Positions 3,079 to 40,299 of a DNA stretch of 40,299 bases are shown here, one piece after another. The position numbers and the translations under genes are program-made. Within the stretch, counting starts at the first letter, position 1; every line of letters begins with the position of its first letter. Below the pieces are notes generated by a model, which saw only the letters and a program-made list of their open reading frames with translations, had not been told where the DNA came from and searched no databases. This DNA comes from Collodictyon triciliatum (Eukaryota): assembly GCA_043381765.1 (NCBI GenBank), contig JBHJMP010000296.1, positions 1 to 40,299 of the forward strand. The letters are read 5' to 3'.

Positions 3079-6000
3079 TTCCAGAAGACTACTATGCTAG
3101 TTTAGACGCAAATGGAAAAAGGGTGGACATTGATGCGAAGCCAGAGTTGCAGTATGTAGCTCGTTTTGATTACAGAAGCTGCACTATATACATATTGAAA
3201 TTGAAGGTATACAGAACCAATTTAATCGGGCGATATTTGTCATTGTTAAATACTCCTAGCTCTGGAAGCTTTGAATACATAGCCACATCCGACTATTATA
3301 CGCACGAACCAAATCCGCCATGTTTTATGTTCCTAATTGACTCGTCGCCGAAAGCAGCTCAAAGGTTATATCAGACCCGCCAATCATAAGGATAGAGCTA
3401 ATATATTGATTGAAATGTTAATAATGACATTATTTTCATAAAAAAAAAATAAAGAGGCATATATGGAAAGAGGATATCGCAAGAATCAAATTTCCTAAGC
3501 CTGTTCAAATACTTAATATAGTGGCTGGCTGCTTTCCATCTGCCGCTCGTTACAGATATCACTACGAAGACTATGCCAAGGTATGCACTGAAATAACATA
3601 TCGAATCGAATTCAATATATATTCGTCAATAAATGTAATGGGTAACAAACCCGTCGTATCATTTTGATTGGTATTGTTTGTCTTAGGCCATGACGATTCG
3701 TCTCGAGTCGGAATCATGACTTTTGATGAACACCTTCACTTTTACCATATTTCTGTCAGTAATTTTGGATGAAGACATCACTTTTCCCTCTTTTTTTTTA
3801 CATCATGAATAGTTATTTCATTCATCGGATATTACCTCATTTATGTTACAATGTCGTATTTATGTGATTAAAAATAATCATATAAAGTTAATGTTTTTCT
3901 TATCACGAAACAAAATCATAATTACGGTTTGATTTAGCTCAAGACAGGAAAGCCAAGAGAATATGTCATGACAGATTTGGTATCTGGTGGTATACCTTAT
4001 CCAACAGGCTTCTTTATTAGTTTAAAGGAGCACGTGGAAAGCATTTGCTCGTTGCTTGAAAAGGTTTATTTTATGGATTACTTTTATTAATCCTTCGATG
4101 TAATAGTGTAATTGGAGTATGTGTGATTGATGTGTATATCCCTGATTCTTATATCTCTTCTTCGTACACTCATCGATTTGTCTACCAATTCAGTATAAGA
4201 GAGGGACTGAGGCAAATAGATAACACTTTGTAAGATGAAAAAAATATTCCTCATCATAGATTCCCTTCAATTCACGCAAGACAGAGTCCAAACCGTGCGC
4301 TCTTGGTTCGGCGATGCAGTCAGCTCTAAAAATAATGGTGATACTCCGCTTCGAATCATAAACATAAAGCTAATAAACTTTACTTTCTCGCAACTAACGC
4401 CAAATTATTAGAACCAGACATGCGGTCGGCTGCTTGTATTCCAATGTGAATCTGCATCAGAACCTGTATTTGCTCAAACTAGTGAAGTAAAGCACACAAA
4501 AGAAAAGGTGCGGTTTAGTGTCTCCGATGACTTTTCACTTTCCTTTAATGAAAGCAAAACGTTCATTCTTATTGACACGATTTAGAGACAAGAGAGTCAT
4601 ATTTCAAGCAAGGAATACTACATGAAACTAGTTCCTTTGTTTTCGAGTTCCTTTATTTGTGTAGACTATTTTGTGTTTGGGGAGCACGAAAATATTTTTT
4701 ATACAAGTAATACGTTAGTCCATAAATGAATACCATATTTATCACGCACATCATGACCTTCGTTCATATGAAAGTATCGATTATATCCTTGATGATACGA
4801 AATTGTACATCATTCAAAAGGTTTCATCAGTCGCAAGACAGGAGGACAGATTCATCATTTCCCGATCAAACAACAAGCCGAAGATGTGTCAAGACTAGAC
4901 ACTGCTCTATCAAATATCGTTTTGGGAGCATTCGTGATGGAATGTGTGATGAGAGTGAGATGCTCACCTGGTCAGTTTATATTTTAGCTATCTCCCTTCT
5001 AATCGTCAGTTTTATCATCTATGGGCTATTGGCCCTGTTCCACCATCACTCCGCGTGTGAAGATGTAAACAATTTCAAAAAAAAACTATTATAGAATACA
5101 AATTGGGATTGTTCCAAGGCAGTTTGGTTATGAAGGCTACCGACCTGTGTATTTTGGGTCAATCCGATTGTCACAAAACTTATTCTGTGATTATTGAGCC
5201 AAAGACGAAAGTGGCCCAATCAAAAGTCTTTTCAATCCAAGTGGCGATGCTTTATGTGACTCGGTCCGGTCTGCGCAAAATTAGAATTCACAATGTTGCT
5301 GTGCCTGTGTCATCGAGTTATGTCGATTTGTATCTAGCAGCGGACTGCAGAGTTATCGGCTCTTTGATAATAAAGAACGGTATGTATGATGATTATTTTT
5401 CTTTGTTTTTTATGCCATGTGCTACATTAAAAGGGAATAACAGAAGAATAATAGTTATATCTGGGGTGATGGAATGGAAGATGCCGAATCCTAAGGAAAA
5501 AGTGATTAAGCACATGGCAGACATTTTGCTTTTTTATCAGAGAGCCATCAAATCAGTAGGTTTCCTTAGCCAATTGCAAATCCATTTAAAGAAAAAAATT
5601 CATGAATATCATCGTTCATCAAAGTTTTCAAAAAATTATTCTAAAAAAAAAAAACCTTACGTAGAAAACGACGATGGAATTATCGCTTCCAGACTCTATC
5701 GCGCACTTACCTATAATTCTTTTATCCCTCTTGAAAGTATGTGGCAGTGCTAGATGAAGAATATTTACATTCTATTTTCTCCGAGAAATTATAATAATAT
5801 ATAGAATGAAACAATAATTGCCTGTTAAAAAAAAAAACATTACATTAGTGCTGTATATTACGTTCCAGTGAAAAATACACCACCAGAAACACTGTATTAT
5901 CACATCACTTGTGTACTTGGTCGATTGAAAAAACTCTTGCCTCTCTTCATCCCTTGCTTATACCTTTGTCGTTCTTTACAGGAAAGGTTTGCGATTTGAA

Positions 6001-9885: not shown

Positions 9886-12800
9886 ATGAACCACGCAACC
9901 GTGCCACTGGAGTGCGTGCGCTTCCTCACCCTCCCGGACGGACAAAGGCCAAAGGTAAACACAAACACAAATCACAACCTCTTTGATCAAAACACAAACA
10001 GCAGAAGCCACAACCCCTTTGATCAAAACACAAACAGCAGGAGCCGCCCAAAGCCGCCCAAACAGCAGAGGCCGCCGCCCTCACGCAGGACCGGCTCGCC
10101 CTGTGCAGATCGCTCTCGCAGATCCTCACGGGGGAATACTACGTGCAGCTGGACCCGGCCGATCGGGACGATCTGAAGCAGAGCCTCGTGAGCGCGCTGA
10201 GTGCGTGTGCGTTTCGCGCAAAGTGGCGGCAGCAGCGCGCAATGTGGGCGCTTTTGAAGGCCGAGCATCGGAGTCACCAGCAGAGGAGCAGCGGCTCAAG
10301 CAGGGAGTCTGCAAGCCAGGCAAAGAGGCGGGTGCGGCTTAAGAGCGCGTCGCCTGCTTCGCGTGAGTCCAGCGAGTCCAGCGAGGATTCGGACTTTGCC
10401 AGAATCTACGGCGATGGTTACTGGCGGCGGAGGCAGCGGGCCAAGAGGCCAAGAGGGTCGAAAGACTGTGATGGGAGTGATGGGGATAATGACGATCGTG
10501 TTGATGGTGATGATGATGGTGCTGAAAAGGAGATGGAGCGCAAGTCACAGATAGAGTTTCTGTTTGATGAGAGCTACCAAGACCACTTTCGCCACGTGCC
10601 GCTTTTTGCTCACAGTGTGATTGGGTCCTGGGTTGTCCGAGAGACTCGGCAGATTGGATACATGCTCGCTCACCGGCCGCACTATCTCCGCGCTTTCTTC
10701 CGATGCGACCCTGATGCATGCAGGTTTTGATGTGATGTGATGTGATGTGATGTGATGTGATGTGATGTGATGTGATGTGATGTGATGTGATGTGATGTGA
10801 TGTGGACTTTTCAACTCTTTAATAAAGATTGTTGTTTGTCTGGTGGTGAAGGGCGTGGGTTGTGATGCGTCAATGCGGGTTGTAATGCCAACGTCTCTGC
10901 AGGCTCTTTTTTGATCCGAGGATGATTACGGTGAAGACACACGGCGGATATGCGCTGCAGAATTACTCGCTGAGTCATCGTGATTCTGTGTGGGAAAAGC
11001 TTGTGTGGAGAAACCGGATTGTGTCGCCGGTTGTCGCAGTGCAGAATCTCCACCGCTTCTTTGAACTGGACATTGATGCAACCATGAGGACTCTGCTGGA
11101 GTATGTCTTTAATGATTTAATTGTTGTTATGATTATAACTGTCTTTTGAACAGGATGATGCCACCATATTTTTTTTTTTATAGTTTCACTTATACTATAT
11201 CATTTATTTATCACATAACATACCATATTTGAAATGTGTGGGTGTATTTGGTATTAAAGTCGAGTGCAAAAGGGATGAAATTGATTTCTGGCGGTCGGCG
11301 GACTTCCGGAGATGTGCAGAAGAAGGAGAGTATTTGTCTTTGAATCCGACATATTGGATACGAGTTCTCTATGCAGAAATGATGGAAGGAAAATCTGGAC
11401 TATCTGATGTAACAATATAGTTATACGCAAGCTGTATCTTATTCTTATAATTGTCATGATTATCAGTTATATATGTATTGTAGTATTCTCAGCGGAAATC
11501 GTGATTGGTGGTGTTTTGACGTAAATATGTTTCTCATTTTTTTTTATCTTTATCGTTATCGTTATCTTGAGACAACGACAAAGCTTAAGATATTTTCCTT
11601 CTTATTCTGTGAAAAAGATGTTTATCAGTTTGTGACGCATTCGATGTTATTTTAGGAGCTGAAAGTGTCTTTTATCAAATTCATGGAAAAGTTGGTTTTC
11701 TTTATATACTTCATGAGAGCATCTTTAGCATTATTTTTTCTTCCATTTATTTATTCTTCTTAAAGCTCTTTTTCGTTTTCAATTTAATTCTATGATATCC
11801 TCTAAATCTCTGTGCAGCATTAATATTTTGATAATTTTATCCTTGGAAACTAAATACAATGGCACCCAAACAAATGAATGCAGGGAAAGCTGTCAAACCA
11901 TTATTTCCAACTCGTTCCCTTATCTTGATGACGAACTCCTTCTCCAATTCCTGAGAGATAATGCATCTAATATTACGTTCCCTGAAAATGAAGGAAAAGT
12001 AAATAGTTTGACAACTCTCGATTTTATGTTATATTGTCTTTATCCATTATTGCCAATATGTATGTCAGATGTATCGGACAGCCTTCAAGTTTCTCGTTGA
12101 GTTTTGTTCGCTCACCTTTTTTTTTTTAATTGGAACGATCCCTGATACTATTTATTTATTTATTCTTTTATCATTACTATTTCTAGAACACGTATGACTT
12201 GCTATTTCGATACACAGACTGGAGTGATTTGTCGAACCTAATAATCTCCACAATGGCTCTACTGTTTCCTTACAGGTTTGCTTCATTTGTCGAGGTTTAG
12301 ATATCCTTTGACTATTTGAAATCAAACATGCAAGTCTTTTTGGGTGATTAATGACATGTTCTAGTTTTTTTTCTTTTGATTTGATAATTTTTTTTAAAAA
12401 GTTATGGAAAATCTTCAATAGACTCGATAGATGCTTGCGTGATGAGTCTGATGCCTCGACTCATGCTTTTCAGAAAATTACCGATACACTTTCCCGTTTT
12501 CGCATGATTCCGCTCTCACAAGAAGACATGGATTGTCGGGATATGGTAAGTCTGCCCATCTTTTTATATATATCCTAAAAGCAAAAAACAAGAAAATAGA
12601 ATAACATATCTCAACAACACGATTATCAGATTATTAAATAATTATTTCCATGTGAATAATTGATTATGCATCGTATTCTTTCAGCAAAACATTTCCAAGT
12701 TGATACAAGAATTACATGCCCGGAGGATATAAAAGATCAATTAGTCTTAAAAGGGTTAGGGTTTTCATATGTTTTAATGGACAGGGCTTCCAGCAAGTGA

Positions 12801-22362: not shown

Positions 22363-23445
22363 GTCTCCTGAATATTCAAGTTTTGACATGACGCCTTCTC
22401 AATTATTCATCGTTTAAAGATATTTTTTTCTCTCCTTGTACCCCACAATGTTTTGTGGCGTGATTTTTGATATCTTGTTTGGTGTGAATCCCCAATAAAT
22501 AATAACCTTTTGTGAATCCCAAGTTGCGTTTTCTTTTGCGAGTATGCCCTATTCACCGGTTCATAATTTTATTATTACTTCTTTTTTTTTTTAAAAAAAA
22601 AATAAGCATTCAATTCTCTCTATTATGTAACAATAGTTGTATGTATTAAAAAAAAATAAGAGTTATACAAGGCAAATTGCGTAGGGTGCTTTTTTTTAAT
22701 CCATCATATGGTTTTTCAATGCTCTTCTTTTTTCTTCCTTTTGAAATTGCCACACTCCCTTTTTCTATCGACACATTATATCATCCACAGAGAAAAGAGA
22801 ACCAATTCTGTCAATTTCCATTACTGAAGTGATGAACACACCTTCTGGAGCAACACTTATTGCCTTGACCTCGCATCGCATGGAACAACTCCTTACATGC
22901 TTCCGGACTTGCCCATGACATCGTCCCTCCCCCAGAGAACTGTCACGTGCGACTCGTCCTTGTGCAGGACAAGCATGACAGGTTATTGATGAAAAGAGGC
23001 GTATTCTTCTGCAATCGATGAGAGAGACAAGCACACAAGTCCACGTGCAAGTCCGGGGATCATGATCCATAGCACTCTGCGCTGTTCAGCAACTGATACA
23101 TAGAGGAAAGCTGAGCCTTTCTTTGTTCGTCGTGTATTTGAGTGCTGTTTGGTGTGGACGATTCGCTCTTGTCTGGCTTTCTGTCGTTTCGGGTGTCTGA
23201 GTGAGTTGAGCGGCCAACATGTGATAGATCATCTTTTTGCCCACAGTGATACTTTCCATTCTGTGTTATGAGGCAGAGCTCATGCTTGGCGAAGGTGTTC
23301 TCTTTGTTGTTTGGCTTATCTGTTCGTTTCTTATGCGGCACACAAACGAAGGAGAAACTGAAGGAAACATCATATAATCCTTAGATATGTGTATGGCTCA
23401 AGTTTGGGCTTCAGTGCATTTCAGACATTTCTTAAATCCATCGTC

Positions 23446-23547
<102 letters not shown>

Positions 23548-23629
23548 CTCATCTATTTACTTCATCGATCCATTTATTTATCTACTTATTTATCTACTTA
23601 TTTATTTGTTCATGAACTTTAGAACCAGG

Positions 23630-25493
23630 ATGTCGGAGCATCAAAAACAGCTGGACGAATTGAAGAAGCTGCCGATCGATTTCCGTTCGAAAGGCAAAAA
23701 GCAAGAATTAGAAAAGTGCACATTCTTTAGCATCAGCGGGAGGCATGTGCAGATGGCTCTGGTTGGCATTTTCGAGCTCAGCTGCTTGGTTATTCTCGAA
23801 CTTTACAACAACCTATTATCCCATTTACCGCCTGAAATATCAAAATTGAGTCGCCTAGAGTTATTGGATATTTCCCATAATCAGCTGGCGTTTTTGCCTC
23901 CTCAGATTAATAATCTAACTCGCCTTCGGATTCTCAATGTGAATAGCAATAAGCTTGTCACACTTCCTGTCGAAATATCAGGGCTAAAATGCCTCGAACT
24001 CATCGATGCATCCAGAAATATCATTATTCATTTACCACCCGAAATATCAGCCTTGGGGGCCCTTACACAACTGAATGTATCCAAGAACAGTCTTGGTACA
24101 TTGCCTCCTGAAATATCAGGATGTAGAAATCTCCATGTTTTTGATATTTCAATGAATCAATTCTCGTCCCTACCATCTTGCATATCAGGGCTTATATCTC
24201 TCAAAGGCTTTGATCTGTCTCAAAACCAACTATCGAACTTGCCGCCCGAGATATCAGGATTAACACAACTCGAAATACTATTGATCCAGTCAAACAAGAT
24301 TTCAATGTTACCACCTGAGATATCAGGACTAATTCAAGTTACCAAGCTTTGCATTTATGAAAATCGGGTATGTTTCATTCGGTTTTTTATCCTTTTTTTT
24401 TTTAAAAAAAAAAAAACGCGAATTTTTCACAGCCCATTGTTCTTAGAATTTGTAATATGACAGATTGAGGAGCTCCCTTTGCAAATCACAGCCCTTACAA
24501 ACTTATCAGAGTTTCAAATTGAAATGTTAAGGAAGCGCAGCATAAGGACAGCTCCTCGCGGAATCACAAATCTGCCTTGCTGGAGCAATAAAGAGAATGA
24601 ATACTTTGGAACAACAAGGAGCGTTGCAGAGGGAATTAATGGGCTCTGTCTCTATGATTATGTTGGTTTTCATTAAATGATACCATAAATCCAATAAGAT
24701 CTATTATCGCATCAACAAAAACGCCAACATCCCCACCATCATGCACAAAATTGAAAGACAGAATAAAAATATTTTTTCATCAATAAAAACATATCAAACC
24801 CTATAGAATGAGAACATGGTGGACACTTTGTGGATTCCAGAGGCAAATGAGATTGGCTTTCAAGGATTAAGTTTTTACAGAATGAGTCTCTTCGAATTGC
24901 CCAAACAATTGAAGCTTCTTACAAATATTACTAGTCTATGTCTCAGGAAAAATAATGCAAGTTCTTAGATGATATCAAAAGACTAATCTATTTTATCTAA
25001 AGATGTTATGTGTTATATTCGATATGAAAGACTACTAACTGAACCGCAGTTTATTGAATTTCCCGACGTATTGCTTTGCATGACCTTGATGGTGAATCTG
25101 GATATCTCCCACAACAAGGTTAATCTCCATACACTTCCTTTTGATTCATACGCATATCAATTTATTTATTTATTTAAAATTTGGATAATTTACATTAAAA
25201 ACAGTGCCACAAAACCTCAGATAACAGCTATTCCCAACGAAATTAACTGCCTGTCTAACCTTAAAGTATTAGACGTCACATATAACAGGGTATAATTACC
25301 TATAATTACCTTCAATATCCATCAACCCATATTGAAAAGTCTCATCATATCATAGGTCAGGCAATTGCCCTATTTCCATGCAACAGCCTCGACGAGAAAA
25401 AGAATTGTTCAAGCCCCGGAGAAAGGCTCTGCCAGGAAGGCCTCCCGATTTGAACTACAAAACTGGTCCATCCTAGATGATTTCTCAGACTAA
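23630..25493 (+). CDS. Leucine-rich repeat protein (23-aa LxxLxLxxNxLxxLPPEISG repeats)
   Basis: Exon 23630-24367 carries ~9 regular LRRs; further LRR exons at ~24464, 24807-24956, 25050-25118, 25221-25289; last exon 25356-25493. Confidence 0.85.
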
Positions 25494-26288: not shown

Positions 26289-29116
26289 TCAAGCACTTGC
26301 TCTGTTCAAAAAAACAAAGAGCGATTGATACAAATCCATCGTTGGTGCGTGATTGGTTCTATCCATTACAACCTTACAGTCTGATATGATGCATTTCATC
26401 TCTACAGAAGTCATGAACAGCCCAGAGTAAATTAACTAAATTCCCGATTGTAAGTGTTTCGGCATGTATTTTCTTATTTTTTTATAAAAATACATGTGCG
26501 TATATTAATTTGTTAACCTCTGCATAAATATCATTAAACATTAAGAGTTAAATTCCAAAACTTACGCAGTTACGTAAAATCGTTCCTATATCATAAAGGG
26601 TTTCGGTGGATAGATTCGGGGTCTTCAAAACCTTCGATGATTTTGCAATAATGTTGGTACTTTGAGTCGAGTGATTTTCAAAGCTTCAAAATAGAAAGAA
26701 ATGAAAGAAAAAATGAAAGAAAAAAATGAAAGAAAAAAACGAAAGAAAAAAACGAAAGAAAAAAACGAAAGAAAAAAACGAAAGAAAAAAACGAAAGAAA
26801 TAAAAGGGAAATAAAATAAAAGTTTGACCAGTGGTGATTGAGAAATATTTATGTAAAATGATAGCGATTATACTTTTTGAACTATGCAGACAATTCTTTT
26901 TATGCTTTCATCTCGGCTTTCTATCCCATTGGCGGTTGCAAAGTTGCTAGACAAGCTTATGGAAAGAACATATTTAATCTTTTGAATGCACTCAGAAAGC
27001 TATGATAGTTTTTGTATACTTAAAGAACAATGGCAAGACGACATCCAGATGTTGACTCGTAAGTGACTTTGAAATGAATGAATTGGACAAATCGACAATC
27101 TAAATACCAATATTTTCTCTTTTAGTGCATAGTCAGTTCTACAATACAAACAATTCCTACCTTAGCTGTGTGTCGGATGATACTCTGGAACAATCTTTCT
27201 GATGAGAGTATATTCGTAAGTGTGCGAATGTATAATTCAAGATATTGCGAGCTTGGCGACTCCAAAACAAAATAGTGTATAAATTCCTCAGTTCTAGCAA
27301 GAAAATGGGAGGATGTTATCGCTCCATGAATATCAGTGAATTGTGCCAACCAACCGATCAGTGAGATTCCTGCATGAAATGGTGCAAACTGTTCATTTAA
27401 AATCATAAAGTCAACTGAAAAGGTAAATTCTTATTACGCACAGCGATACTTGACGACCAAATTCTGAATTGAACGCACACAGAAAGAAATGAGAAGATGG
27501 TACCTTGAAGAGATAACGACAAAGGCCACATACTAATTTTATTTGTCAATCCCAACAATTTTATCAATTCTTCTGAGGGCGGGCGGATTATTTTCGCAGA
27601 CGAAAAGTGGGTATTTTGTAGTATCCACAGTTCGTCTTGTGTAAGTTGTGACTCCGACTGTTGGAATTTTATCATTTATGTTAAAATCGCAGGAAAATAT
27701 ACAATGAAACGGTTTAAAGAAAACTCTAAATATATCGTACTGGAATGTTTTCATTTGCTTCGACGATCAAACTTATGTCTTTATCCAAGTGAATTCGAGT
27801 GTCTATTCGCGGTGCAAAAGTGGTCTAAAAATATACTCTCGTTAACATGGATACATTCATTCGCTTACAAGAGACTTTTTACGAGAAAATGATATACCGT
27901 TCGCTTCGGAACCAGACGATGCATTGTAAACCGTGTGACCATATGTTTCTGGAGTATACATTACATACAAGAAAATGGAGATATTAACACTTTCATTTTT
28001 TTGAAACAAGCGCGATCAGTATAAATCTTATTCATTACCTGAGAGCATCCGCCTGTAGAGGCCGTAAAACCAACCCAGGCATAAGCCGGAGGTTGTCCAT
28101 TAAATTGAGTTGAGGACAAGACCATATCATCAGGGTCGTGCAAATCCAAAATTCGAGGCATATCAACTGCCACGCTTAATACTGGGGCTTGGTTTGAGTC
28201 GATGTAAATAGATAATTCATTATTCCAGTAAACAACAGATACATTATGCGGATTATTGTCCGCAAGCCTTGGAATATTTTCATGAACCTAATATAGTTTT
28301 TACCAACATTTACACAGATTTCTACACGGTTAGACATTTTTTGTATATGAATGGAGAAATACTAAAAAAACGATAAACAAAAGTAATTTACTATTTACGA
28401 TTACATTCGGAGAGGAAAATATATTGACAATTTGATGTATAAAATAAAATTGAGAAATTATATTTTATTGAAAATCGAGAAATTATATTTTATTGAAAAT
28501 CATACAATTCCCAATGATGCATAATGTTCGGCAGTATTAGAGTCCCTTCCTCTCGTATTTACTGATATGTGATTATCATTTGGGTCTTCATACTCTTCGC
28601 CCCAGTTACAAGAGTCAAATTCCACAGCCAAGCTTTAAAAAAATAATATTCAAATGTCTTGAGAAATCAAGCTTATTTTTCTGGTATTATAAAATTTAAG
28701 AATATGCGTGGATCACGTTTACCTATTTTTTATGCATCCGTATCCGAGCTGACTTCCTCTGTCTCCTATCTCTTTATCTCCGCTATTTTGTACTACAAAC
28801 GCCATTCCGTCCGCACCACCACTCATAATAAATGTAAATTCAGCTATAAATCCTTCACTCACATCAATTTTTTTCTTCCACCAAGCTGAACCAACCTTAT
28901 CAGAGAGTGCTTCTGTCAAAAGCAAAACATCTTCTTCATTTCTTGCAAGTATCTGTGTTGAGTAAGTGCAATTTTTTAGTAGTAATTCATAAGAAAGTCC
29001 TTCTTCAAAGTGAATTCCCTTCTATGAATAAATTTTGAGGTATACCCTTGCAAATCCATTTACAGACCACATTGGTTCCATTATAAGCCTGCTTGAAGAT
29101 GCCTCTATAATAGAAT
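26289..29116 (-). CDS. L-type (legume-like) lectin domain plus unassigned C-terminal region; 3' part of the giant gene, or a separate gene
   Basis: Spliced WSVNGFAR-..LLLTEALSDKVGSAWW..FTFIMSGGADGMAFVVQN..LGYG..-SLAVEFDSCNWGEEYEDPNDNHISV..-AWVGFTASTGG; further exons down to a TGA at 26289. Confidence 0.8.
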
Positions 29117-32100
29117 CTAACAAAAATCTGTCATTATTTAGGATTTAAACATACTAGTGATTTTATTGTCAAACGATTTGAGATCTCAATTATTTTTACA
29201 TGCATCTTGTCGCATAGGCTCTGGGATATACGCTTTGAAGGTACGTGTTTCCTTTAGCTCATTCAGTACTTGTGATGCTCCATTGAATTCTTTTGTAGCT
29301 AAATCTGCAATATCGTAAAAACTTGTACATCTTTTATACCAAAGGACCGCCTTATCATGATTTTTCTCGGCAAAAAAATTACTTTCATAAAACGTGCCCA
29401 TAAAAAGGGCAAATAAATGGCCTTGTCTAGTCGACAACTCCTCCAAGACATTCATCATCCCGACAAAATTTGATTCAGCCATTTTTGTAAGAAAATCCCT
29501 CGATTCCTCCTTGTAACAACATATTGCATTCAGGCATATATATTCTGCTTCATTTAGACTGGCTTTCTTGAAAATGTCCATATTATTTTGAATCAACCAT
29601 GTACTCTCCTCGTCACCCAATACAGCTGCTCGAAGATAATATTTGAACGCTTCATTATAATTTTGGGGTACACCTTCTCCAAAATAAAGTAGATCGCCCA
29701 TTCCTTTTGTTGCCTTTACATGATTCTGTTCTGCTGAGAGCTGAAACCAATAATGGCATTGGTCAAGGTCCATTTCTATATTAAGTCCCTTCTTTGCGCA
29801 TAACCCCATGATAAATTGAGCATGAGCATCACCATTCCCAGAGTAAATCACAATTTTTTCATATGATTCGGTGATTTCGATTTCGGCACCAATCCCATAG
29901 TAAAAAACTGCCGACTCGGTGTTAACTCCTGTTCCCCATCCGTTTTCATAGCAATCGGCCAGAGCTGGGATAGATATTGGAAACTTGTAACTTTCTCCGA
30001 TTTCGTAACCATACTGATTGATTCTAGTTTCTTTTTTCCTTTTTGAAAGACTTTTCAGTACTTTAAATGCCCTCTCCGAACCGCCTTGTGCGAGTTGTTT
30101 TAGACGTTCAAAGTGGTTTCTATCGTGTGGAGACGATACTATTTTCCAAAAAATGGACTGTTCTACACTTGGTTCAACGCTCCATCCATTCTCATAGCAT
30201 TCTGCAAGAACAGAGACCGCCATAGGATATTTAATTCTCTCCTGAATTTCATCATCATCCTCATCCTCTTCATCTCTAGATAATCTTGCAAATGCCATAT
30301 TACCTAGGATATCAAAAGCTTCTTTCGACCCTTGCTGTGCAAGTTGTTTTAATTTTACGAAATCTTCGGCCTTTCCAAACATTTTAGCAGCTTTTTTCGG
30401 GGTTTTTTCGACAGCCCATCCATTTTCATAACACTCAGCAATAATTGATATTGCTTGTTTGTATTTGTATGTCTCCCCAATAACCCTATCAAAAGAATCC
30501 AAAACATTTTTACAAACATCAGACATCTTTTTCAGTATAAAGAATGCATCTTTTGATCCTTTTTGTACGTATTGCCTGAGCTTTTCAAAATTTTCAGCAT
30601 AGCCATACCACTTGACTCCTTCTTGTAGATTGGCATCGACTCCCCATCCATTTTCATAGCACTCAGCGATATTATTTTGTATTTGAGGATACTTGTACCT
30701 TTCCTCTTTGTCTCCGCTGTCGTTCTCTACAAATTCTTTCATTTGAGCAACGCCCAGTAGCACTTTAAAGGCATCAACCGAGCCGTTTGTGGCATGATAC
30801 ATCAGCTTCGGAAAATTTTCTGCCTTTCCATTCCATTCCAGTGCCTCACATAAATCCTTCTCTACACCCCAACCATTTTCATAGCAATGTGCCACTACAG
30901 ACGATAATTGGGGATATTTTTCTGTCTCTCTGATTTTTTTACCATAAAGTATCTCATCAATTTTCATTTCCGCTAACGATTTGAGGGCTTTGAATGCCTC
31001 GTTAGAACCCTGCCTAGCCAGAAGCTCCAACTTTTCGAAATTTGAAGAAACTTTGAGGGACTGAATCCACCAAAAATGTGCTTCCCTACTATTTTTCTCT
31101 ACAGTCCATCCATTTTCGAAGCATTTAGCCACCATAGCTGCTTGGAACTCAGAATATTGTTCATTCTTACAGTATGAAATAAAATCTTCGTCAAAGGATG
31201 CTGCGCCTCTTGAAAAAAATATTCTCTTATTTGTGTCACTCAGTCCGACGACATTCTGTAAATAAATTCCTCCTCCCTCTAAAAATCTATGCTCAACTCT
31301 TTGACATATTATTTCATCTACTGGTTCATGAACAGGACTTGTCAACTCATCTGAACACCCAGTTTTGATGTATTTTCTTCCTGATATATATCTTACTTCT
31401 CCTTTTTTTCGGTATCGAAGATTACTCTCATATGTTAGATTTAAAATATGAATAGTCTTTCCAGCCCCGCTATAAGCTAGCCATGTTTCTTCATTTGCAC
31501 TTAGAAAACTGCAGATAACCCTGATATCGCTTTTTTGTTCAAAAATAGTCCTCATCAAGTACCCCGTTTCTGTATCCCAAATACAAATTTTTCCATCGTA
31601 TGCACCAGAAGCAATCCAATTTTCACCATTTGGTCCACAGACCTTGCACATGCTCTTGATAGAACTTTCGTGGCCTTCCAAAACCTTGACTTGAGTGCCT
31701 GAATATAGATTCCAGGCGTAGATTCTGCCATTATCACCCCCGGATACTAGTTGTATCACACCATCCGAATTTTTTACACAGCAAAGACTATTGATGCCAA
31801 AGCATTGCGTTTCAATCGTCTTGATTCTATTCCCAGCGTTAGGGTCCCATATGAGTATTTTATTATCATATCCTCCTGATGCCAGCCATATATCCCCGTC
31901 TGGTCCGTCGATTTGACACACGGAATAGATAGAGGCTGTATGTCCTTTAAGAATCCTGACGGCATCACCAGTTTCCATACTCCATATTATAATATTCTTA
32001 TCGACACCTCCCGAAGCTAGATAAATATCGCCATTTAGAGATTGAAAAAGTAAAAGACTTCTAACACCATCTAAATGTCCCTCCAGTGATTTTTCTTGGG

Positions 32101-35100
32101 TTTGGGCGGCTATATCCCATATTCGAATGATTTTATCATCACCTGCTGATATCAGTCGTTTTTTCCCGTTGGAATTAGAATAAAAGCACAATGCTCTGAC
32201 ATCATTCTGGTGACCCTTCAGTGTTTTGATAACTCTTCCAGTAAGTAAATCCCATAGTATAATAATCTTATCCGAACTCCCAGATGCTAACCAATTTTCT
32301 CCGTTTGGTCCCTCGATTATACATGCACAGTTTGTAAAGTGCATGTGCCCCTCAAGTTTGTTGCAAACAACACCAAGGTTTGCTCCATTCATATTGGATC
32401 CGTTAAGAATAATATCCCTTAATGCTGCATTTGAAAAGTTAACACCCCTCAAGTTGGCTCCAGTCAAGTCAGCACCATCCAAGATTGCATCTCTGAGGTA
32501 CGAATTAGGGATATTAACATTAGAAAGGTCCATCTTGCTGAAGGATACTTTCATGAAATTTAAAAGTTCGATGGCTTTAGATGCTGCTGAATCTTGGCTT
32601 TCAGCTTTTCTTGAAAGATAAACAATATCAAACAGACAAGAAATTATCTGGCTGTAATCTAGTTGCCTGGCCTCGGTGCCTAGGCTAGCACTTATGAATT
32701 CATGGACTTTTGTGAACTCAATCGGTTCTTTGTCGATCCCTAGCTCCTTATAATGATATGATAAAAACTCACATGCATTTAAAATACTAACGTGGTTCCA
32801 ACCTATTTTTTCTGAAAAGTGTTTTATTATATCGACCCAAAAGTCAATAGCCTCTTTGTGCTGTCTATTTTCCATGTATAGTTGATTCAGCTCCTCACAA
32901 CAATTCCAAATTGAAGGGTATGAAATAAATTTCTTGTCACTGAAAAAATGAATGAGCGATTTATACAGTTCTGCAAGAGATGCAACCTCGTTTTTCTGTT
33001 TCTTGAATTTGATCAAATTGATTAATTGTGAGGGTTCTTTGATAGACATCAGTGATTTTGTTGACCTTCGAATAAAAGAGGACTTTTGAAAATATTCTGT
33101 GACCTGGTCCAACCTTGAGAAATTAAAAAATATTAAAAAAGGGTTTCAGACACTTCAAATGAATAAAAAAAAATTGAATATAGTCTACAGAAAGATTATA
33201 TCTAAACAACCTTTTCAGTTCAAAATTAGTTCGGCCTATGTTTTCTAAGGACGATGCATAGTCTGCATGAAGCTCCCCAAGTGTCCTTTTTCGAGCTTCC
33301 AGAGTTTTAGTGTATGAATCTAACGCAACTCTATATCTATAGTATATTATTAGATATTAAAAATCATTGTGAGAATAGAGAGAAAGGTCTTTTAATTAAA
33401 GGTCAGTACTCCTTCATGTCATGGTTGATATCACCAATTAATTCGTGGCAAGATATCACAGCGGGATGATTATCTCCCAAAGTTTCAATAAAGATCGACA
33501 GTGATTCATGCAGTAGCGGAATAGACTCTAGTTTTCTAGTTTTTAAAGCCATATTATAAATCATATTTTACATTAATGAATTTTCGAATTAGATAGTATG
33601 ATTTGAGAACCTATTCTCAGCAATATACACCTTTGCGATGTATAAAATAGTGTGTCCTATTGAAGGGTGAGTATCGCCAAATGATTTTTGAAGTATAAAT
33701 TTTGCATTTTCATATTGCACTCTGGATTCCGCATATCTAAGTAAGCAATAAAAATTCATTTAATGTAGTGAGAAATTAGAGGACGCAAGTATTCATATAC
33801 AATCAATATTCCACTTTTGAATAGATCAACTACTCTTTTAAAATGTTACTTCTTTTCGGCCAAAAGGACGTGACCAATATTTTGAAACGATTGCGCCACT
33901 GACGGATGGTCATTTCCAACTTTTTTCAACCTGATTTCTCTTGCCAAGTAGTATTCTTCTTTCGCTTCATCATTCCTTCAATAATGTATTCATTTGAATC
34001 CTTTTGATTAGATATTTGGAAAGAATAATAGCTTTTGCGAATAAAAAAATGAAAGAAAAAAAAGTGAAGATCATATTATTTAAGGGACGTCATTCGAATT
34101 ACTGCATAGGGTCACCTTCCTTGAAGTAAATATATATCTCCGAAGCGGTCGTGAGATAAAGCTATTTCGAAACTGTTATCATCGTGATGTTTTCTTCGTA
34201 ATTCGTAAGACTTTTGATACTCCAACATAGCCTCGGTCAACCTATTGAAATAGAAATTAATCCAATATATATAATAATATGAACTCTATGCACTTACTTA
34301 TTTTCCTGTTGGTATATATATCCGATTTCTTCGTGAATCGCAGCAAGCGAGCTTACGTTTTCACAGGCATTTCTCTCGTTAATGTGCAAACATTTTCTGA
34401 AATAGTAAGCTGATTCCATCCAACTAGGATTTATGTAAATAAATAAATTATTATCCGTGTTTTTTTTTTGAAAAATTTAATTCGTGGTGAATCTTACTTT
34501 TGTATATTCTTGTATACTTTCCCGAGTGTCAGATAATCTTCAGACTTTGATTCTATCCATATTTACTAGACATTAGGGATTATTGCAAGGAAATAGTAAA
34601 TATTTAATTCATTTTTGTATAATAAACCTTCGGTTAGCTTTTTTCCGATTCTTTGGTTGATGTTCGATATGAGAAATGTATTTTCAAAACTCTCCAAAAA
34701 GAACTCGATTAGCATATCACCAACTCTTCTTACAGACTACATTTATTCCAACTATTAGTATAATATTATAATTAAAAACATCAAAATAGACTGACCTTTA
34801 CGAGACTGGAGTATACTGTTTTGCTATTCGCTACAGATTTTGAATCAATCATTCTCCAACAATAAAAGAACTCATACCGATAGCGCCCACCCAACATCAG
34901 CACTACAGCCTGCAAAAAATTTAAATTGATATAATTCGTAGGTGAAAAAAAATGCATAATTGAGTCAAACGTGCTCTTGTTTGAGATACTCCACTAGTAA
35001 TTCGAAACATTCTCCCTCAAGTAGTTGATGGCAAATTTCTGCTGCTAGTTCCTCATCTACATCAACAGCTTCTGAGTATTGGCTGAAGAGCCATTTTCCG

Positions 35101-38100
35101 TAGTTTTTTTTGACATCAGTTCGGTCTTGCAAATTCGAAAAGAAAAATGATTCGGCCGTCTCCATGAGAAGTTGGTGGAAATACATATATCTTTTGTTGA
35201 AAGAATAAGTATGCATTCTGAACGTCGCTTCAAATTAAATACATAATATGCCTCATTATTTTCTGATGAAGTATAACAACCTCCCGTTTCGCACGAAAAG
35301 TGACTCGATTAAGGTAAAAAAGAATGACTTCCTATAAAAATAAGAAAAATAAAAATAGAGTGAATAGGAGCTTTCGAAAACATTTTTTAAAGGCTTATAA
35401 TGCAATAAAAGGGCTTCTTACCACTCAGCAAGTTCAAATAAGTTTCCAACATGTATTTCAATATATTTATCAAGATCGTTCTCGCTCAAGCCGATACGTG
35501 AAACAAACAAGACTTTCATCGATATGTCCACTATAGGTGCACCTTTTTGTGGAAAATACAGACAAAATTAAGATAAATGATTACTGCTGAAATATTGGTC
35601 AAATGACTTACCCTTTTTGTTGAATTTGCTCTGCCAGCGTTTGATAATCAAAGAATAGAGCTCAATAGCTCCGTTCTTTGAAAGTAGACTGTTTAGTTCT
35701 TTGTCTAGTTTCTCATACACCCCAAAAACTCGTATTTCGTCCAAAACAATACGCAGATAGAGAGGATGGCCTGTAAATAAAATTATATAAAGCAGTATAT
35801 AATTCTTTGCTACTGATACATTTTACTATATTTTGGTTCATAAATCTATTGATATTGAATATAAACCTAGTATTCACCTGTATTTTCATGATTTAAAAGC
35901 AGCATTTGCATTTGCTCTTCACTTAGTGATTTGTCATATCGAAAGAGAAAGGAGGTAGCGCTTTCTTGGATCTCTTCGATGGTTAATTTTGTCACTGGAA
36001 TGGCATCTAGACCGTTTTCAACGGCATGCTGCATGAAAGTTTATCATGACCAGATATTTGGTATGATTTATTTTAATAGTATGAAATGTTTTTCGTATTA
36101 AGACATTCAACCTTGCATGATACATGAGCGTCAATCGTAGAGAATAATAAAGCGATGTTGAATGGTGTTCTTTTGGGCAACCAATTAAGCGTGTGGGGTA
36201 CAGGGTTTTCTTGTGAGGGTTTTATTTGATTCACAGCATCAATCAGGAAAATAAACTTCTTGCTCCTATTTTTTTAAAAATAATATTTTAAACTCAAATA
36301 CAGACTTTATACAATTAATTACCTAGAAATATGGTAACCTGTTTTTTTTCTTTTCTTTCAATAATTTGAATAGGCCATGAATTCCCTCTTTTTGGAAATC
36401 TAATGTATAATCATGATTTAATTTCTTCACTATTGCACCTGTAGTGGCGTATAATCCATATTTGAATATAAAAGTAAGTAAATTACCAGAAGATGTGTCA
36501 TATAAAAAAGAAACTAATTGGTCATCGGAGCTTGTAACCAGTCTCCAGAATCGAATTGAGATACTTTAATGATGTTTGAAATATTAAGTATCTTTTGAAA
36601 AACGAAAACAAAGATGCGAATCATTCATATTAATGTTTTGTGTCGTCTAATTTGGCAAGAGATGATTGGAAGGAAAAGAATATTCTTAAAATTATATTTT
36701 ATTCTAATTTTATGTCAAAATTAAATAAATAGGTACTTTACCTTTCCACATAATTGCTCAAATTGGTGCATCCCACAAAATGGAACATAATATTAAGCCC
36801 AGGAATTCCCATACAATCAAAGTCTTTAGCGATGGCAGCCAAAAGGGATGACTTGCCAATTCCCGACGAAGCTGCCAGGACAGTTGCTGTTGTGTCTTCT
36901 TCATTCAACTGAGACCATATCTTTCAAGAAAAATATCAATAATCTTATGGAGAAGTAACGACCAAATCTATAAAGAATATCTATAACATCTTTATTTCTT
37001 TTTGGTTTTTTGTTAGTTTTTGTTCAATTATTTATCTATTTTTACATTTCCATTGATTGTGGAAAGTAAATCTTTTCGACCACCAAACCCAGCCAGTCGA
37101 TGCATTTTGAATTGGTGATGAGCCTGGTCCTCTGTATCCATAACCTACAAGTTTAAAAGTCCTTTGAGATATAAATATTTAAATTAGGTTTCTTTATAAA
37201 AATTAATTACCTTAACTCCAGAAAAATCTCTGAGAAAAGCGTAAGTCAAGTGATGAACTATCATATCGGAGTACTCTTTTGGTCCTTTATAGGTAACATG
37301 CCCATATTGACCTCTAATCTTTTCCTTGAGATCATCCTGGCGTTGCTTCTGCCATGTATGAATAAATACGAGAAACTTTGTACTTTTGCTCTTGCCTCTT
37401 TTAATCCGAAAAAATACTAACGGCCTCTTCATTCTCAGCCAGGTACAGCTTTCTCTCTTCTTCTGTTTTTGCAGAAGCCTTGGCAAAATCTTCATCTCGG
37501 AAGTAAAAAAATACTCTACTGCAAGCAGGTTTCGGTATCAGAGCAGCATATTGTATCTGAGATACGAGAAAATTGAGTAAACATAGACATATTTCAGCTC
37601 AAATTTTTCAATTCATATACTTCATATTCTGTGACACTTAGCCCAGGCATTTCATCGATGAATGGAAATCGTTTGTTTGTCTCAGAACGCCATTCAATAT
37701 TAAATTCAGCCAATTTAGGCTGATGCCCATATTTTTGATCGTTTTGTTGGTCTTCAGTGATACTGGTCTCTGTCTTCGACTGGTCAGGTATCCATCCGTA
37801 TCTTGCACCCAAAGAACAAACAAAGTAAGGACATTTTCCAATAGAGTCTAAACACCGGATGACGACCTTTTAAAAAAATAAATGAGAAACAGTAAGGTGC
37901 AAAAATTTTATAGATTCACTTTTTTTTATCTTTTTCATACCCATCCTTCTCTGCTGTCTTTTGATGTCAACCCCCAGCGTAAGTCAATAAATACGAGTTC
38001 AAATCCCATTGATTTTGCCAGATTTTTTAATCTGTGAAATCATGTGTTAAATAAAAAAACCTTTAGATATGATAGGGATGAAAAATCAGGCCATCCACGC

Positions 38101-39472
38101 ATATTGTAAGGAGAAAGTGATAGAAATAGAGAAAGCAAAAATGGGGTTGACTCACTCTAGGGCTCCGTGTTGGAAAAATGTATCTCTTTCGTTCTGCATA
38201 TCGCGGAAAGTGGATGACAAGAAAACGCGTATTACATGTTCATCAAATATTATAAGGTCGAGAGCTTTCGGGGTCATATATCGTTGTGGTGCAGGCAGCC
38301 ATTTCTTGAATTTTTTATCTTTCAGCTCATGTTGCATCATGTTCATCTATCCATGTACACTATCAGTCATATAGGGTGGAATCAAACTTTCATATACTAA
38401 AATGAAATAAACCTTGTCTATTAAGATGCACGATCTAATTAAAATGACACTTCCTTGTTGCTCCAGTCCTAAGTCTTAAAATTTTGTTTTTCAATGAAAG
38501 ACAGTTAAGCTAAGAGTATCATATCAAAGAACATTCAGAATGCCATACGGTTGAGAAAAGGTTACACATTATTAGACTATTCACCTCCAAATGGAAAAGG
38601 AATTTTTATTTTTTCGAATAGAACTTTGGCGTCTTGGTATCGCTCTTCAGGTTCATTCTGTGCTTAATTATGTTTAGAATCATATAAATGTCTTGCTTAT
38701 GTGGTACATTGATTTTCCTTCAACTTATCGTTAACCACCTTGAATGGTACATCTTGGCCGACAGATTTCGCTATCAGGTACCATAGCACCAGATAAACAA
38801 TTTCTATAAAAAAAAATACAAGGTTTTTCATAAAAAAATGCTATATTTTGGGCAGGGAATATTCGAGGTTTTTGGGTTATTTTCTTACAAACCTTGGAAC
38901 CTGACATCTTGGAGGGATGTTCTTTGTATATCGATACTTTCATATTTCCTTTCAAGCCATTCTCTAATTTTGGTTTGGTTTTTGGAATTTGATGATTCTT
39001 GAGTGATGGCGCAGTCGCTGGAGTAAATTAAGAAAAATAATGGCATCGTTTAATTTCATCACAAAAACGAAAATAAAACAAAAAAATACAAATTAAAATG
39101 ACGTGAGATAAAATGCTTTACTAAAATAATCTTATGACAATAGACAAAAAATTTTTTAGAATGCCCGCTTACGAGAAGAGTCGAGTTTGATAATCCAGAA
39201 ATTTTTCGTCCAATACAATCTCCGCAAGTATAATGAGGAAGAATCCGTCCTCCATGTCCTTCTTCACATCTTTTGCTCTTAATTGAACTTTATCCAGGTG
39301 GTAGTTGACCCATTCGAGAAGCGCCTTATTAATGTTTAATATCTTCAGATGTGACAAATATGGTATTAGTAAGCTTTTTGGTGAATTATTTGCATAATTT
39401 TCTTTAAATAAGCAATCTATTGCGATACGAAACCTCTGATGTGCTCACAAGCTTTCTTGCTAGCAATGACAT
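26289..39472 (-). CDS. Giant multidomain STAND/NACHT-like NTPase: CH-DUF4062-P-loop-TPR-pentapeptide-WD40-Sel1-L-type lectin
   Basis: CH: LLEWVNYHL..KDVKKDMEDGFFLIILAE..LVLWYLI (39330-38740). DUF4062: RVFLSSTFRDMQNERD, DLRWG, CPYFVCSLGARYGWIP, SVTEYE (38231-37620). Walker A ASSGIGKS (36872-36849), Walker B FIFLIDAVNQ, LNWLP, GHPLYL. KLC-like TPRs FGDTHPS, LGDNHPA, LGELHAD. Then a 3.9 kb exon and lectin exons. Start, end and the lectin junction are inferred. Confidence 0.72.
26693..26800. repeat. (GAAAGAAAAAAAC)n 13-bp tandem repeat, intronic
   Basis: Directly visible. Confidence 0.9.
29186..33112 (-). CDS. Large exon: TPR tail, pentapeptide repeats, 7 WD40 repeats, Sel1-like repeats
   Basis: 1308-aa ORF preceded by an AG acceptor at 33115-33114. 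Contains LRDAILDGADLTGANLRGVNFSNAAL, LEGH/LKGH..LASG..D..I.IWD x7, CYENGW-type units x6 and canonical Sel1 (MGDLLYFGEGVPQNYNEAFKYYLRAA). Confidence 0.92.
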   Translation of the reverse strand: MDQVTEYFQKSSFIRRSTKSLMSIKEPSQLINLIKFKKQKNEVASLAELYKSLIHFFSDKKFISYPSIWNCCEELNQLYMENRQHKEAIDFWVDIIKHFSEKIGWNHVSILNACEFLSYHYKELGIDKEPIEFTKVHEFISASLGTEARQLDYSQIISCLFDIVYLSRKAESQDSAASKAIELLNFMKVSFSKMDLSNVNIPNSYLRDAILDGADLTGANLRGVNFSNAALRDIILNGSNMNGANLGVVCNKLEGHMHFTNCACIIEGPNGENWLASGSSDKIIILWDLLTGRVIKTLKGHQNDVRALCFYSNSNGKKRLISAGDDKIIRIWDIAAQTQEKSLEGHLDGVRSLLLFQSLNGDIYLASGGVDKNIIIWSMETGDAVRILKGHTASIYSVCQIDGPDGDIWLASGGYDNKILIWDPNAGNRIKTIETQCFGINSLCCVKNSDGVIQLVSGGDNGRIYAWNLYSGTQVKVLEGHESSIKSMCKVCGPNGENWIASGAYDGKICIWDTETGYLMRTIFEQKSDIRVICSFLSANEETWLAYSGAGKTIHILNLTYESNLRYRKKGEVRYISGRKYIKTGCSDELTSPVHEPVDEIICQRVEHRFLEGGGIYLQNVVGLSDTNKRIFFSRGAASFDEDFISYCKNEQYSEFQAAMVAKCFENGWTVEKNSREAHFWWIQSLKVSSNFEKLELLARQGSNEAFKALKSLAEMKIDEILYGKKIRETEKYPQLSSVVAHCYENGWGVEKDLCEALEWNGKAENFPKLMYHATNGSVDAFKVLLGVAQMKEFVENDSGDKEERYKYPQIQNNIAECYENGWGVDANLQEGVKWYGYAENFEKLRQYVQKGSKDAFFILKKMSDVCKNVLDSFDRVIGETYKYKQAISIIAECYENGWAVEKTPKKAAKMFGKAEDFVKLKQLAQQGSKEAFDILGNMAFARLSRDEEDEDDDEIQERIKYPMAVSVLAECYENGWSVEPSVEQSIFWKIVSSPHDRNHFERLKQLAQGGSERAFKVLKSLSKRKKETRINQYGYEIGESYKFPISIPALADCYENGWGTGVNTESAVFYYGIGAEIEITESYEKIVIYSGNGDAHAQFIMGLCAKKGLNIEMDLDQCHYWFQLSAEQNHVKATKGMGDLLYFGEGVPQNYNEAFKYYLRAAVLGDEESTWLIQNNMDIFKKASLNEAEYICLNAICCYKEESRDFLTKMAESNFVGMMNVLEELSTRQGHLFALFMGTFYESNFFAEKNHDKAVLWYKRCTSFYDIADLATKEFNGASQVLNELKETRTFKAYIPEPMRQDACKNN

Positions 39473-40195: not shown

Positions 40196-40299
40196 TTCTT
40201 TTCTTTTTCTTTTTTCTTTTTTCTTTTTTCTTTTTTCTTTTTTCTTTTTTCTTTTTTCTTTTTTCTTTTTTCTTTTTTCTTTTTTCTTTTTTCTTTTTT
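40196..40299. repeat. (TTTTTTC)n microsatellite at window end
   Basis: Directly visible. Confidence 0.95.

Follow-up and report, generated by a model that had tools for sequence, protein, structure and literature searches.

Two 2026 preprints show the DUF4062 domain, renamed NIR, to be a TIR-like NADase of bacterial defense and of human TEP1 (bioRxiv 10.64898/2026.09.04.749371; PMC13174449). They place NIR at the N terminus of many eukaryotic NLR-like proteins (NWD1, NWD2, TEP1, NPHP3, and TTC41) and describe it as widespread in Metazoa, Choanoflagellata, and Amoebozoa and of low prevalence in Fungi. A further paper reports the transfer of NACHT-PPR-WD40 receptors from Mycoavidus to Mortierellomycota (PMC11291939). 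Here we analyze a gene on the minus strand of contig JBHJMP010000296.1 of Collodictyon triciliatum, all 40,299 nucleotides (nt) of which form the window studied. The predicted product reads, from its N terminus, as a calponin homology (CH)-like domain, DUF4062/NIR, a NACHT-like NTPase, a helical arm, seven TPR repeats, a linker, an anchor helix, pentapeptide repeats, WD40 repeats, a cap motif, and Sel1 repeats. Everything from the seventh TPR repeat onward appears to lie in one large exon, which is best explained as the last exon, encoding the sensor, of an NLR-like STAND gene.

Like human TTC41 and NPHP3 (TPR type) and NWD1, NWD2, and TEP1 (WD40 type), as described in the two preprints, the window gene has an N-terminal DUF4062 domain, a NACHT-like NTPase, and C-terminal repeats, and the logic of sensor, switch, and NADase effector expected of NIR-NACHT proteins would hold for it too. 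Unlike the human proteins, to which it is likened here by description, it combines TPR, pentapeptide, WD40, and Sel1 repeats with a CH-like N terminus. APAF-1, as these papers describe it, likewise joins a STAND NTPase to C-terminal ligand-sensing WD40 propellers that keep the protein inactive; it differs in its NB-ARC clade, its CARD effector, its two propellers, and its lack of pentapeptide, TPR, or Sel1 repeats.

The C-terminal part of the gene resembles other receptors. The NACHT-PPR-WD40 proteins described from Mortierellomycota and their Mycoavidus endosymbionts (PMC11291939) share with it, in the Mortierellaceae sequences compared here, a long-form anchor helix, about 12 pentapeptides, WD40 repeats, and a ...GLS..N..L...RGA cap. 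Unlike the window gene, the Mortierellomycota receptors carry this cassette directly after NACHT, end at the cap, and have blades of 42 residues; DUF4062, the TPR repeats, the linker, and Sel1 are extra parts of the window gene. Cyanobacterial NACHT/NB-ARC-WD40 proteins have the same helix-pentapeptide-WD40-cap order and a common cap consensus, ...RPYEGMNITGVTGLT..Q...L.ALGA, but differ in a short helix (GYA.GN.LNLL), fewer pentapeptides, usually 14 blades of 42 residues, and LGA rather than RGA at the end of the cap. A literature search on NACHT-PPR-WD40, DUF4062, and the five-domain combination (paper supplements aside) found no eukaryotic description of this architecture, which by that search is undescribed in eukaryotes.

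Contents of the large exon

The exon lies in the longest stop-to-stop frame of the window (29186..33145, minus strand; 1,319 codons); the next longest frame has 360 residues. Three Pfam families match it: pentapeptide repeats (PF00805; residues 196 to 234; E = 6e-11), WD40 (PF00400; residues ∼270 to 585; E = 2e-36), and, in the C-terminal half, Sel1 (PF08238; E = 4e-31; 106.6 bits against a cutoff of 30.7). An AlphaFold2 model of residues 165 to 665, based on a 36-row alignment, reached a mean predicted local distance difference test score (pLDDT) of 83.5 and a predicted template modeling score (pTM) of 0.70. In this model, two helices, the second being AASKAIELLNFM, are followed by a beta-helix with single-residue strands at five-residue spacing and by 28 strands that form seven blades. 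After ∼50 low-confidence residues, which take in the 40-residue spacer (31390-31271) that precedes the cap, the cap itself is modeled as a helix and two short strands (pLDDT, ∼60 to 68). The closest solved folds in a Foldseek search were seven-bladed WD40 propellers (template modeling scores of 0.87 to 0.88, target normalized).

The frame contained no in-frame GT..AG candidate of low guanine-plus-cytosine (GC) content for a hidden intron. Only 2 of its 259 windows of 75 nt fell under 0.27 GC, and five neighboring introns have 0.22 to 0.27. A search against Rfam gave no match.

Relatives found through the linker

A profile of the linker (residues 12 to 216 plus the matching part of the EukProt transcript P0006) was searched against 1.84 billion representative proteins, <50% identical to one another, and six proteins were found. 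P0006 is collinear with residues 5 to 593 (E = 4e-65) and also aligns with three upstream exons. It and three further proteins, P0234, P0235, and P0236, have in full or in part the same TPR-linker-pentapeptide-WD40 order as the window gene; the latter three share linker, cassette, and cap with it, and a 132-residue fragment (P0238) covers the helix, the pentapeptides, and the first blade. The block was thus present in all five family members found through the linker. Identity within the linker is 33 to 34% to P0234 and P0235 and 23 to 25% to P0006 and P0236.

The 2,619-residue P0234 shows, by eye and alignment, a CH-like domain, DUF4062, a P-loop NTPase, TPR repeats, the linker, the helix and pentapeptides, ∼20 blades, and the cap, and it finishes with one Sel1-like repeat. 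P0234, P0235, and P0236 all stop 9 to 29 residues past the stretch that matches the window's cap and first Sel1 repeat. Two scans of metagenome contigs for further relatives gave 592 and 221 pattern matches, none of them confirmed, and a search among longer proteins returned none at an E value of ≤1e-30.

Borders of the exon

At the 5' border (33113), an AG at 33115-33114 and an upstream AAAAG|GT donor delimit a 97-nt intron. The spliced junction NIGRTNFELKR|LDQVTEYFQKS completes a TPR_12 repeat that the intron interrupts, and P0006, P0234, and P0235 align across it without a break. Read from the sequence, this border is well supported.

The 3' end is less sharply fixed. The frame stops at TGA 29188-29186, and an AATAAA hexamer begins 19 nt past the stop codon. 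The alternative, a donor at 29200 (GCAT|GTAAAA), scores 4.7, the 6th lowest of 28, and the acceptor before 29116 scores 1.6, lower than all 28 modeled acceptors; this end also requires a 53-nt exon and a 42-nt intron ahead of three lectin-like exons, and three relatives end without a lectin. We somewhat favor the stop at 29186 over the donor at 29200 as the end of the gene. The lectin-like domain (PF18483; E = 1e-13; 52 bits, under the cutoff of 78) is probably a separate, tightly packed downstream gene or, less likely, a further C-terminal domain of the receptor. The only usable ATG of the lectin frame is 96 nt past the upstream stop, and its use needs a 42-nt intron.

The sequence-only reading had described a single large intronless exon at 29200..33113 among small ones, containing the helix, the pentapeptides, seven WD40 blades, and the cap. 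We recovered the 5' border, the small size of the other exons, and this content, and we replace the 3' end by the likelier stop codon. That the exon amounts to one pentapeptide-WD40 module is true in part: the module is complete, but it occupies only residues ∼183 to 648, after a linker of ∼170 residues and ahead of ∼670 residues of Sel1.

Kinship of the cassette

The best matches to residues 150 to 700 have 25 to 36% identity and include cyanobacterial NACHT/NB-ARC-WD40 proteins and proteins of Mortierella, Entomortierella, and Dissophora. A search with residues 1 to 270 was dominated by generic pentapeptide proteins. Of 120 hits, 34 matched the helix and pentapeptide part; seven were generic pentapeptide tracts and were excluded, and 27 were kept in a junction alignment. 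In the window gene, as in these 27 anchored proteins, the anchor helix leads directly into the pentapeptide repeats. The junction has a long form (AA.NAI.LL....F...DL..I.IP, with about 12 pentapeptides) in the window, P0006, Mortierellaceae, and the proteins P0009, P0051, and P0075; the short form, GYA.GN.LNLL, occurs in cyanobacteria and other bacteria.

The cap motif GL[ST]x6[LIFMV]x3GA was found in 37 of 120 proteins and lies within 17 residues of the C terminus in 34 of these 37. In the window gene it is internal (residues 634 to 648), with 671 residues following, and the RGA variant of Mortierellaceae is nearest to it. The blades repeat strictly every 45 residues in the window gene, P0234, P0235, and P0006 and every 42 in the consensus of the bacterial and Mortierellaceae rows of the 36-row alignment; the family blades carry a ...GP.GE.WLASG insert. 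The common junction and cap confirm that the unit is the C-terminal unit of NACHT/NB-ARC proteins in cyanobacteria and Mortierellaceae, as the sequence-only reading had stated.

Two of the proteins compared carry the unit in other settings. P0237 (3,631 residues), from the linker-profile search, has two successive helix-pentapeptide-WD40 units. A clear NACHT NTPase precedes the first, which closes with the cap GLSERNQRLLQQRGA; the second unit comes after this cap, so that the cap is internal there too. P0051 (2,013 residues), from the search with residues 150 to 700, has a helix and pentapeptide stretch (residues 1686 to 1752) between two WD40 propellers.

We built trees from the helix to the seventh blade; they are unrooted and of limited sampling. 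In the more careful of the two (28 rows), P0006 is the partner of the window gene (support 95/91), and a 100/99 branch parts nine long-form rows from 19 bacterial rows; the Mortierellaceae rows stand on the window's side of this split from the cyanobacterial rows. The quick tree (27 rows) leaves out six near-duplicate cyanobacterial rows and includes five additional ones. Here the five family modules (window, P0006, and P0234 to P0236) form one group, with a Shimodaira-Hasegawa-like approximate likelihood ratio test (SH-aLRT) value of 90, apart from a Mortierellaceae group (96) and a bacterial group (99), and P0051 is the nearest outside relative of the family (SH-aLRT, 96). Across the two trees, the branch that parts the cyanobacterial rows from the window's group has 99 to 100 support.

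Upstream part of the gene

A splice model guided by P0234, P0235, and P0006 predicts 28 exons from 39330 to 33211, each of 54 to 246 nt (median, 126). The count is a lower bound because some modeled exons may hold unspliced sequence; the 3' end of the last was corrected by hand, and the true start codon lies further upstream than the model. Ab initio exon models passed over evident coding exons and were superseded by this one. The translation aligns in one piece to residues 187 to 1373 of P0234, with 47.9% identity over 1,270 columns.

The CH-like exon near the 5' end of the gene matches PF00307 under the cutoff (E = 1.5e-4; 22.3 bits against 26) and residues 187 to 237 of P0234 with 43% identity (tblastn). 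DUF4062 was detected on two frames (PF13271; E = 9e-7, 29.4 bits against a cutoff of 24.7, and E = 6e-4). It sits N-terminal to the NTPase, in a stretch of the model that aligns to P0234, and ends in a motif, GLSVTEYE, conserved between the window and P0234; judged by TIR-like motifs in general, it may be a candidate site of the NADase catalytic glutamate. The NACHT-like NTPase is spread over two collinear pieces on separate exons, each under the Pfam NACHT cutoff of 26.7 bits. The Walker A exon matches NACHT positions 8 to 39 (14.2 bits; E = 0.039) and is 55% identical to residues 639 to 698 of P0234; the Walker B exon matches positions 80 to 135 (11.8 bits; E = 0.22) and is 64% identical to residues 745 to 794. 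The motifs themselves (GIGKS and FIFLID) can be read directly. A search of six relatives against NCBIfam gave nothing informative on the NTPase.

Next come six TPR_12 repeats, one to an exon; all six exons are exactly 126 nt long, the intron stands at the same position in every repeat, and Pfam finds TPR_12 on four of these frames. The large exon opens as the seventh unit and then runs on. One repeat per 126-nt exon is what duplication of exons would be expected to leave, and it contrasts with the WD40 and Sel1 repeats gathered in a single exon. With DUF4062, the NACHT pieces, and TPR_12 spread over 28 modeled small exons, the host of the cassette is the intron-rich STAND-TPR gene that had been proposed.

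In this gene the cassette is not attached directly to the NTPase; the TPR repeats and the linker intervene. When the NTPase parts of 232 proteins were compared with the upstream exons by tblastn, only P0006 and one chance-level match of 29 columns were returned, with no match from the Mortierellomycota NACHT-PPR-WD40 proteins, and a profile of 34 N termini matched only the P-loop (E = 0.16). Based on the lack of likeness in these searches, the NTPase of the window gene is not the usual partner of the cassette elsewhere.

Origin of the large exon

At the upstream density (28 introns in 3,797 coding nt), 28.9 introns would be expected in 3,914 nt, and the Poisson probability of none is 3e-13. 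Codon usage is uniform along the gene: GC content at third codon positions (GC3) is 0.33 in the module, 0.34 in Sel1, 0.38 in the upstream exons, and 0.37 in a neighboring leucine-rich-repeat gene, and codon choice in the module correlates with that in the upstream exons (0.84) and in Sel1 (0.88). The module is host-like, with no foreign composition. Within the exon, six Sel1 units of ∼76 residues marked by CYENGW (21 to 46% mutual identity) make up ∼1.4 kb, and the seven blades (mean identity, 37% among the six compared) make up ∼0.95 kb; together these ∼2.3 of 3.9 kb suggest that ∼60% of the exon is a product of duplication within it.

We consider it about an even call that the exon goes back to an old event in which an intron-free cassette of bacterial type was fused to an intron-rich NIR-NACHT-TPR gene; domestication and growth of repeats within the exon would have come later. 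The cassette would share ancestry with the sensor at the C terminus of NACHT-pentapeptide-WD40 receptors from bacteria and Mortierellomycota and would have joined the end of the NIR-NACHT-TPR gene in the common ancestor of the small eukaryotic family, not recently. During domestication it would have acquired host codon usage, its blades would have grown to 45 residues, and one Sel1 repeat would have been appended behind the former C-terminal cap. In the window gene, tandem duplication in the exon may then have produced seven blades and six Sel1 super-repeats of 76 residues. A bolder form of this scenario, toward which we incline slightly less than against it, is that a NADase-armed eukaryotic NLR-like family took on a complete bacterial-type sensor cassette, natural protein end included, intron-free, onto an unrelated chassis, and that the Sel1 array grew behind it.

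Several observations weigh against an old fusion of this kind. The intron-free zone starts inside a TPR repeat, 513 nt ahead of the cassette, and runs through a linker without a bacterial match (for these 513 nt alone, the Poisson probability of no intron is 0.023), and it also takes in 2 kb of Sel1 past the cassette. The heterogeneity in introns is therefore real but not coincident with the borders of the cassette. The relatives were compared as protein sequences. The family modules are not nested among the bacterial or Mortierellaceae rows, and long branches and an unusual composition mark several rows, including that of the window gene. Given these features and the lack of a root, the direction of transfer is not established.

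These points bear on a second account, which we hold to be possible though rather unlikely: the cassette is old and vertically inherited, and its resemblance to proteins of bacteria and fungi stems from shared ancestry or from transfer out of eukaryotes. Neighboring introns of the 3' part would have been removed by recombination with a partial reverse-transcribed copy of the mRNA, and repeats would have multiplied in one exon. An intron-free zone that runs from a TPR repeat to the probable stop codon is the 3' pattern expected of cDNA-mediated loss, and this zone spans three unrelated domain types; the uniform codon usage, the 45-residue blade peculiar to the family, and the lack of nesting among bacteria fit this account as well. 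However, among the named hits, the cassette with a terminal cap occurs in several bacterial groups and, in eukaryotes, only in Mortierellaceae, whose cassette is read as a bacterial transfer in the literature (PMC11291939). Should the lectin exons be part of the gene, introns would also resume downstream, at odds with loss at the 3' end.

The sequence-only reading had favored insertion of the block by horizontal transfer or retroposition, which as a recent event in this gene or species we regard as very improbable. In its favor, the block has no introns and is a whole cassette, down to a cap that otherwise usually stands at the end of a protein. Against it, the best bacterial matches are just 25 to 36% identical; the same fusion occurs in four diverged relatives, and its first part occurs in the fragmentary fifth; and the exon borders differ from the block borders, the junction to the upstream exon being a spliced TPR repeat. 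No poly(A) tract was seen beside the stop on inspection, although no search for repeats or target-site duplications was made at either border. Checks proposed with that reading point the same way: codon usage of the module matches that of the flanking exons, the family groups together in the unrooted trees instead of nesting in donor rows, and the relatives found through the linker carry the block. Thus, the shared order in relatives, the grouping of the modules, host-like codons, 45-residue blades, an intron-free zone that overruns the module, and a different NTPase leave recent insertion without support.

Finally, an artifact (misassembly, a contaminant joined to a eukaryotic gene, or a chance open frame) is barely credible: two runs of 100 N interrupt the scaffold that forms the window, and no read or contig from the freshwater metagenomes spans either exon border, the contigs being short and scattered, but the N runs are 26 kb distant, the halves of a TPR repeat stand on adjoining exons where relatives are collinear, four freshwater metagenome runs yielded 151-nt contigs that match within the exon at 99 to 100%, and three Pfam families lie on 1,319 open codons.

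Features of the locus and rest of the window

Table 1. Predicted features of the receptor gene and its surroundings in the window
Feature	Position	Strand	Basis or remark
CH-like (calponin homology) exon near gene 5' end	39173..39330	minus	PF00307; P0234 match
DUF4062 (NIR, TIR-like NADase), three exons	37621..38346 (38346-38156, 38031-37941, 37866-37621)	minus	PF13271
Walker A (P-loop) exon, SSGIGKSSLL	36742..36920	minus	NACHT-like NTPase
Walker B exon, KKFIFLIDAVNQ ... ALLFSTID	36112..36265	minus	NACHT-like NTPase
Six TPR_12 repeats	34423-34298, 34241-34116, 33975-33850, 33736-33611, 33535-33410, 33336-33211	minus	Homology-guided model
Last intron	33114..33210	minus	97 nt; GC 0.22; GT..AG
Large exon	29186..33113	minus	Stop codon 29188-29186 included; alternative 33113-29200 if the weak donor after 29200 is used
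Seventh TPR start and family-specific helical linker	32600..33112	minus	Residues 12-182 of the open reading frame; alignment to relatives
Anchor helix (AASKAIELLNFM) and pentapeptide-repeat beta-helix	32360..32599	minus	Residues 183-262; PF00805; junction alignment; pLDDT >90
Seven-bladed WD40 propeller, 45-residue blades	31391..32359	minus	Residues 263-585; PF00400; predicted structure
Cap motif GIYLQNVVGLSDTNKRIFFSRGA	31202..31270	minus	Residues 626-648
Sel1-repeat region	29189..31201	minus	Residues 649-1319; PF08238
Six tandem Sel1 super-repeats, ∼76 residues each	31159-29780	minus	Repeat-unit comparison
AATAAA hexamer	29162..29167	minus	Begins 19 nt past the stop codon
L-type lectin-like domain, three exons	28039..29021 (29021-28723, 28632-28506, 28287-28039)	minus	PF18483

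Neighboring genes include an exon for a Sec23/Sec24 beta-sandwich (5061-5750, plus strand) and a leucine-rich-repeat frame (23378-24457, plus strand), the first part of which is a TTAT microsatellite (23449-23607). These neighbors point to a compact, gene-dense eukaryotic genome. Introns of the source eukaryote are short and AT-rich, and near-identical DNA occurs in freshwater metagenomes; 15 DNA runs from freshwater, lake, and river metagenomes contain 5 to 8% of the window's words. A contig joint at 30445/30642 was rejected as not credible, one of its sides having just 26 letters.

Between positions 8000 and 11000, GC content is 0.46 to 0.56 against ∼0.35 elsewhere. Both strands of this region carry overlapping open frames of 195 to 235 residues, for which Pfam gave no match, and a microsatellite stands on either side (ACAT x24 at 8053 and TGATG x15 at 10728). 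Tandem repeats rich in purines or pyrimidines, with units AGAAAAAAACGAA and TTTTCTT, lie at 26693-26804 and 40199-40299, just outside both ends of the region of receptor and lectin exons. Similar microsatellites are frequent in the window (24 rows in a tandem-repeat scan).

Predicted function and significance

By analogy with described systems, we infer that the gene product is a receptor with a C-terminal sensor, an NTPase switch, and a NADase effector. The repeats of the C-terminal exon may restrain the NTPase, on the model of APAF-1, TEP1, and bacterial Avs; binding of a ligand to them would release NTP-dependent oligomerization, and oligomerization would bring the NADase domains together and activate them by proximity.

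The diversification of NLR-like receptors is usually attributed to a reshuffling of their sensor, switch, and effector parts, and the window gene shows two modes side by side, with TPR repeats at one per 126-nt exon and a pentapeptide-WD40-Sel1 sensor in a single exon. It offers no clean case of recent transfer. If a NADase-armed eukaryotic family did take on a complete bacterial-type sensor, sensor modules of immune receptors would have been swapped between domains of life independently of the NTPase. With this family one can examine whether a sensor cassette can pass from bacteria to eukaryotes, or the reverse, unaccompanied by its NTPase. Together with the 2026 NADase finding, the gene is a testable candidate for a NADase receptor of eukaryotes whose composite sensor combines four types of repeats.

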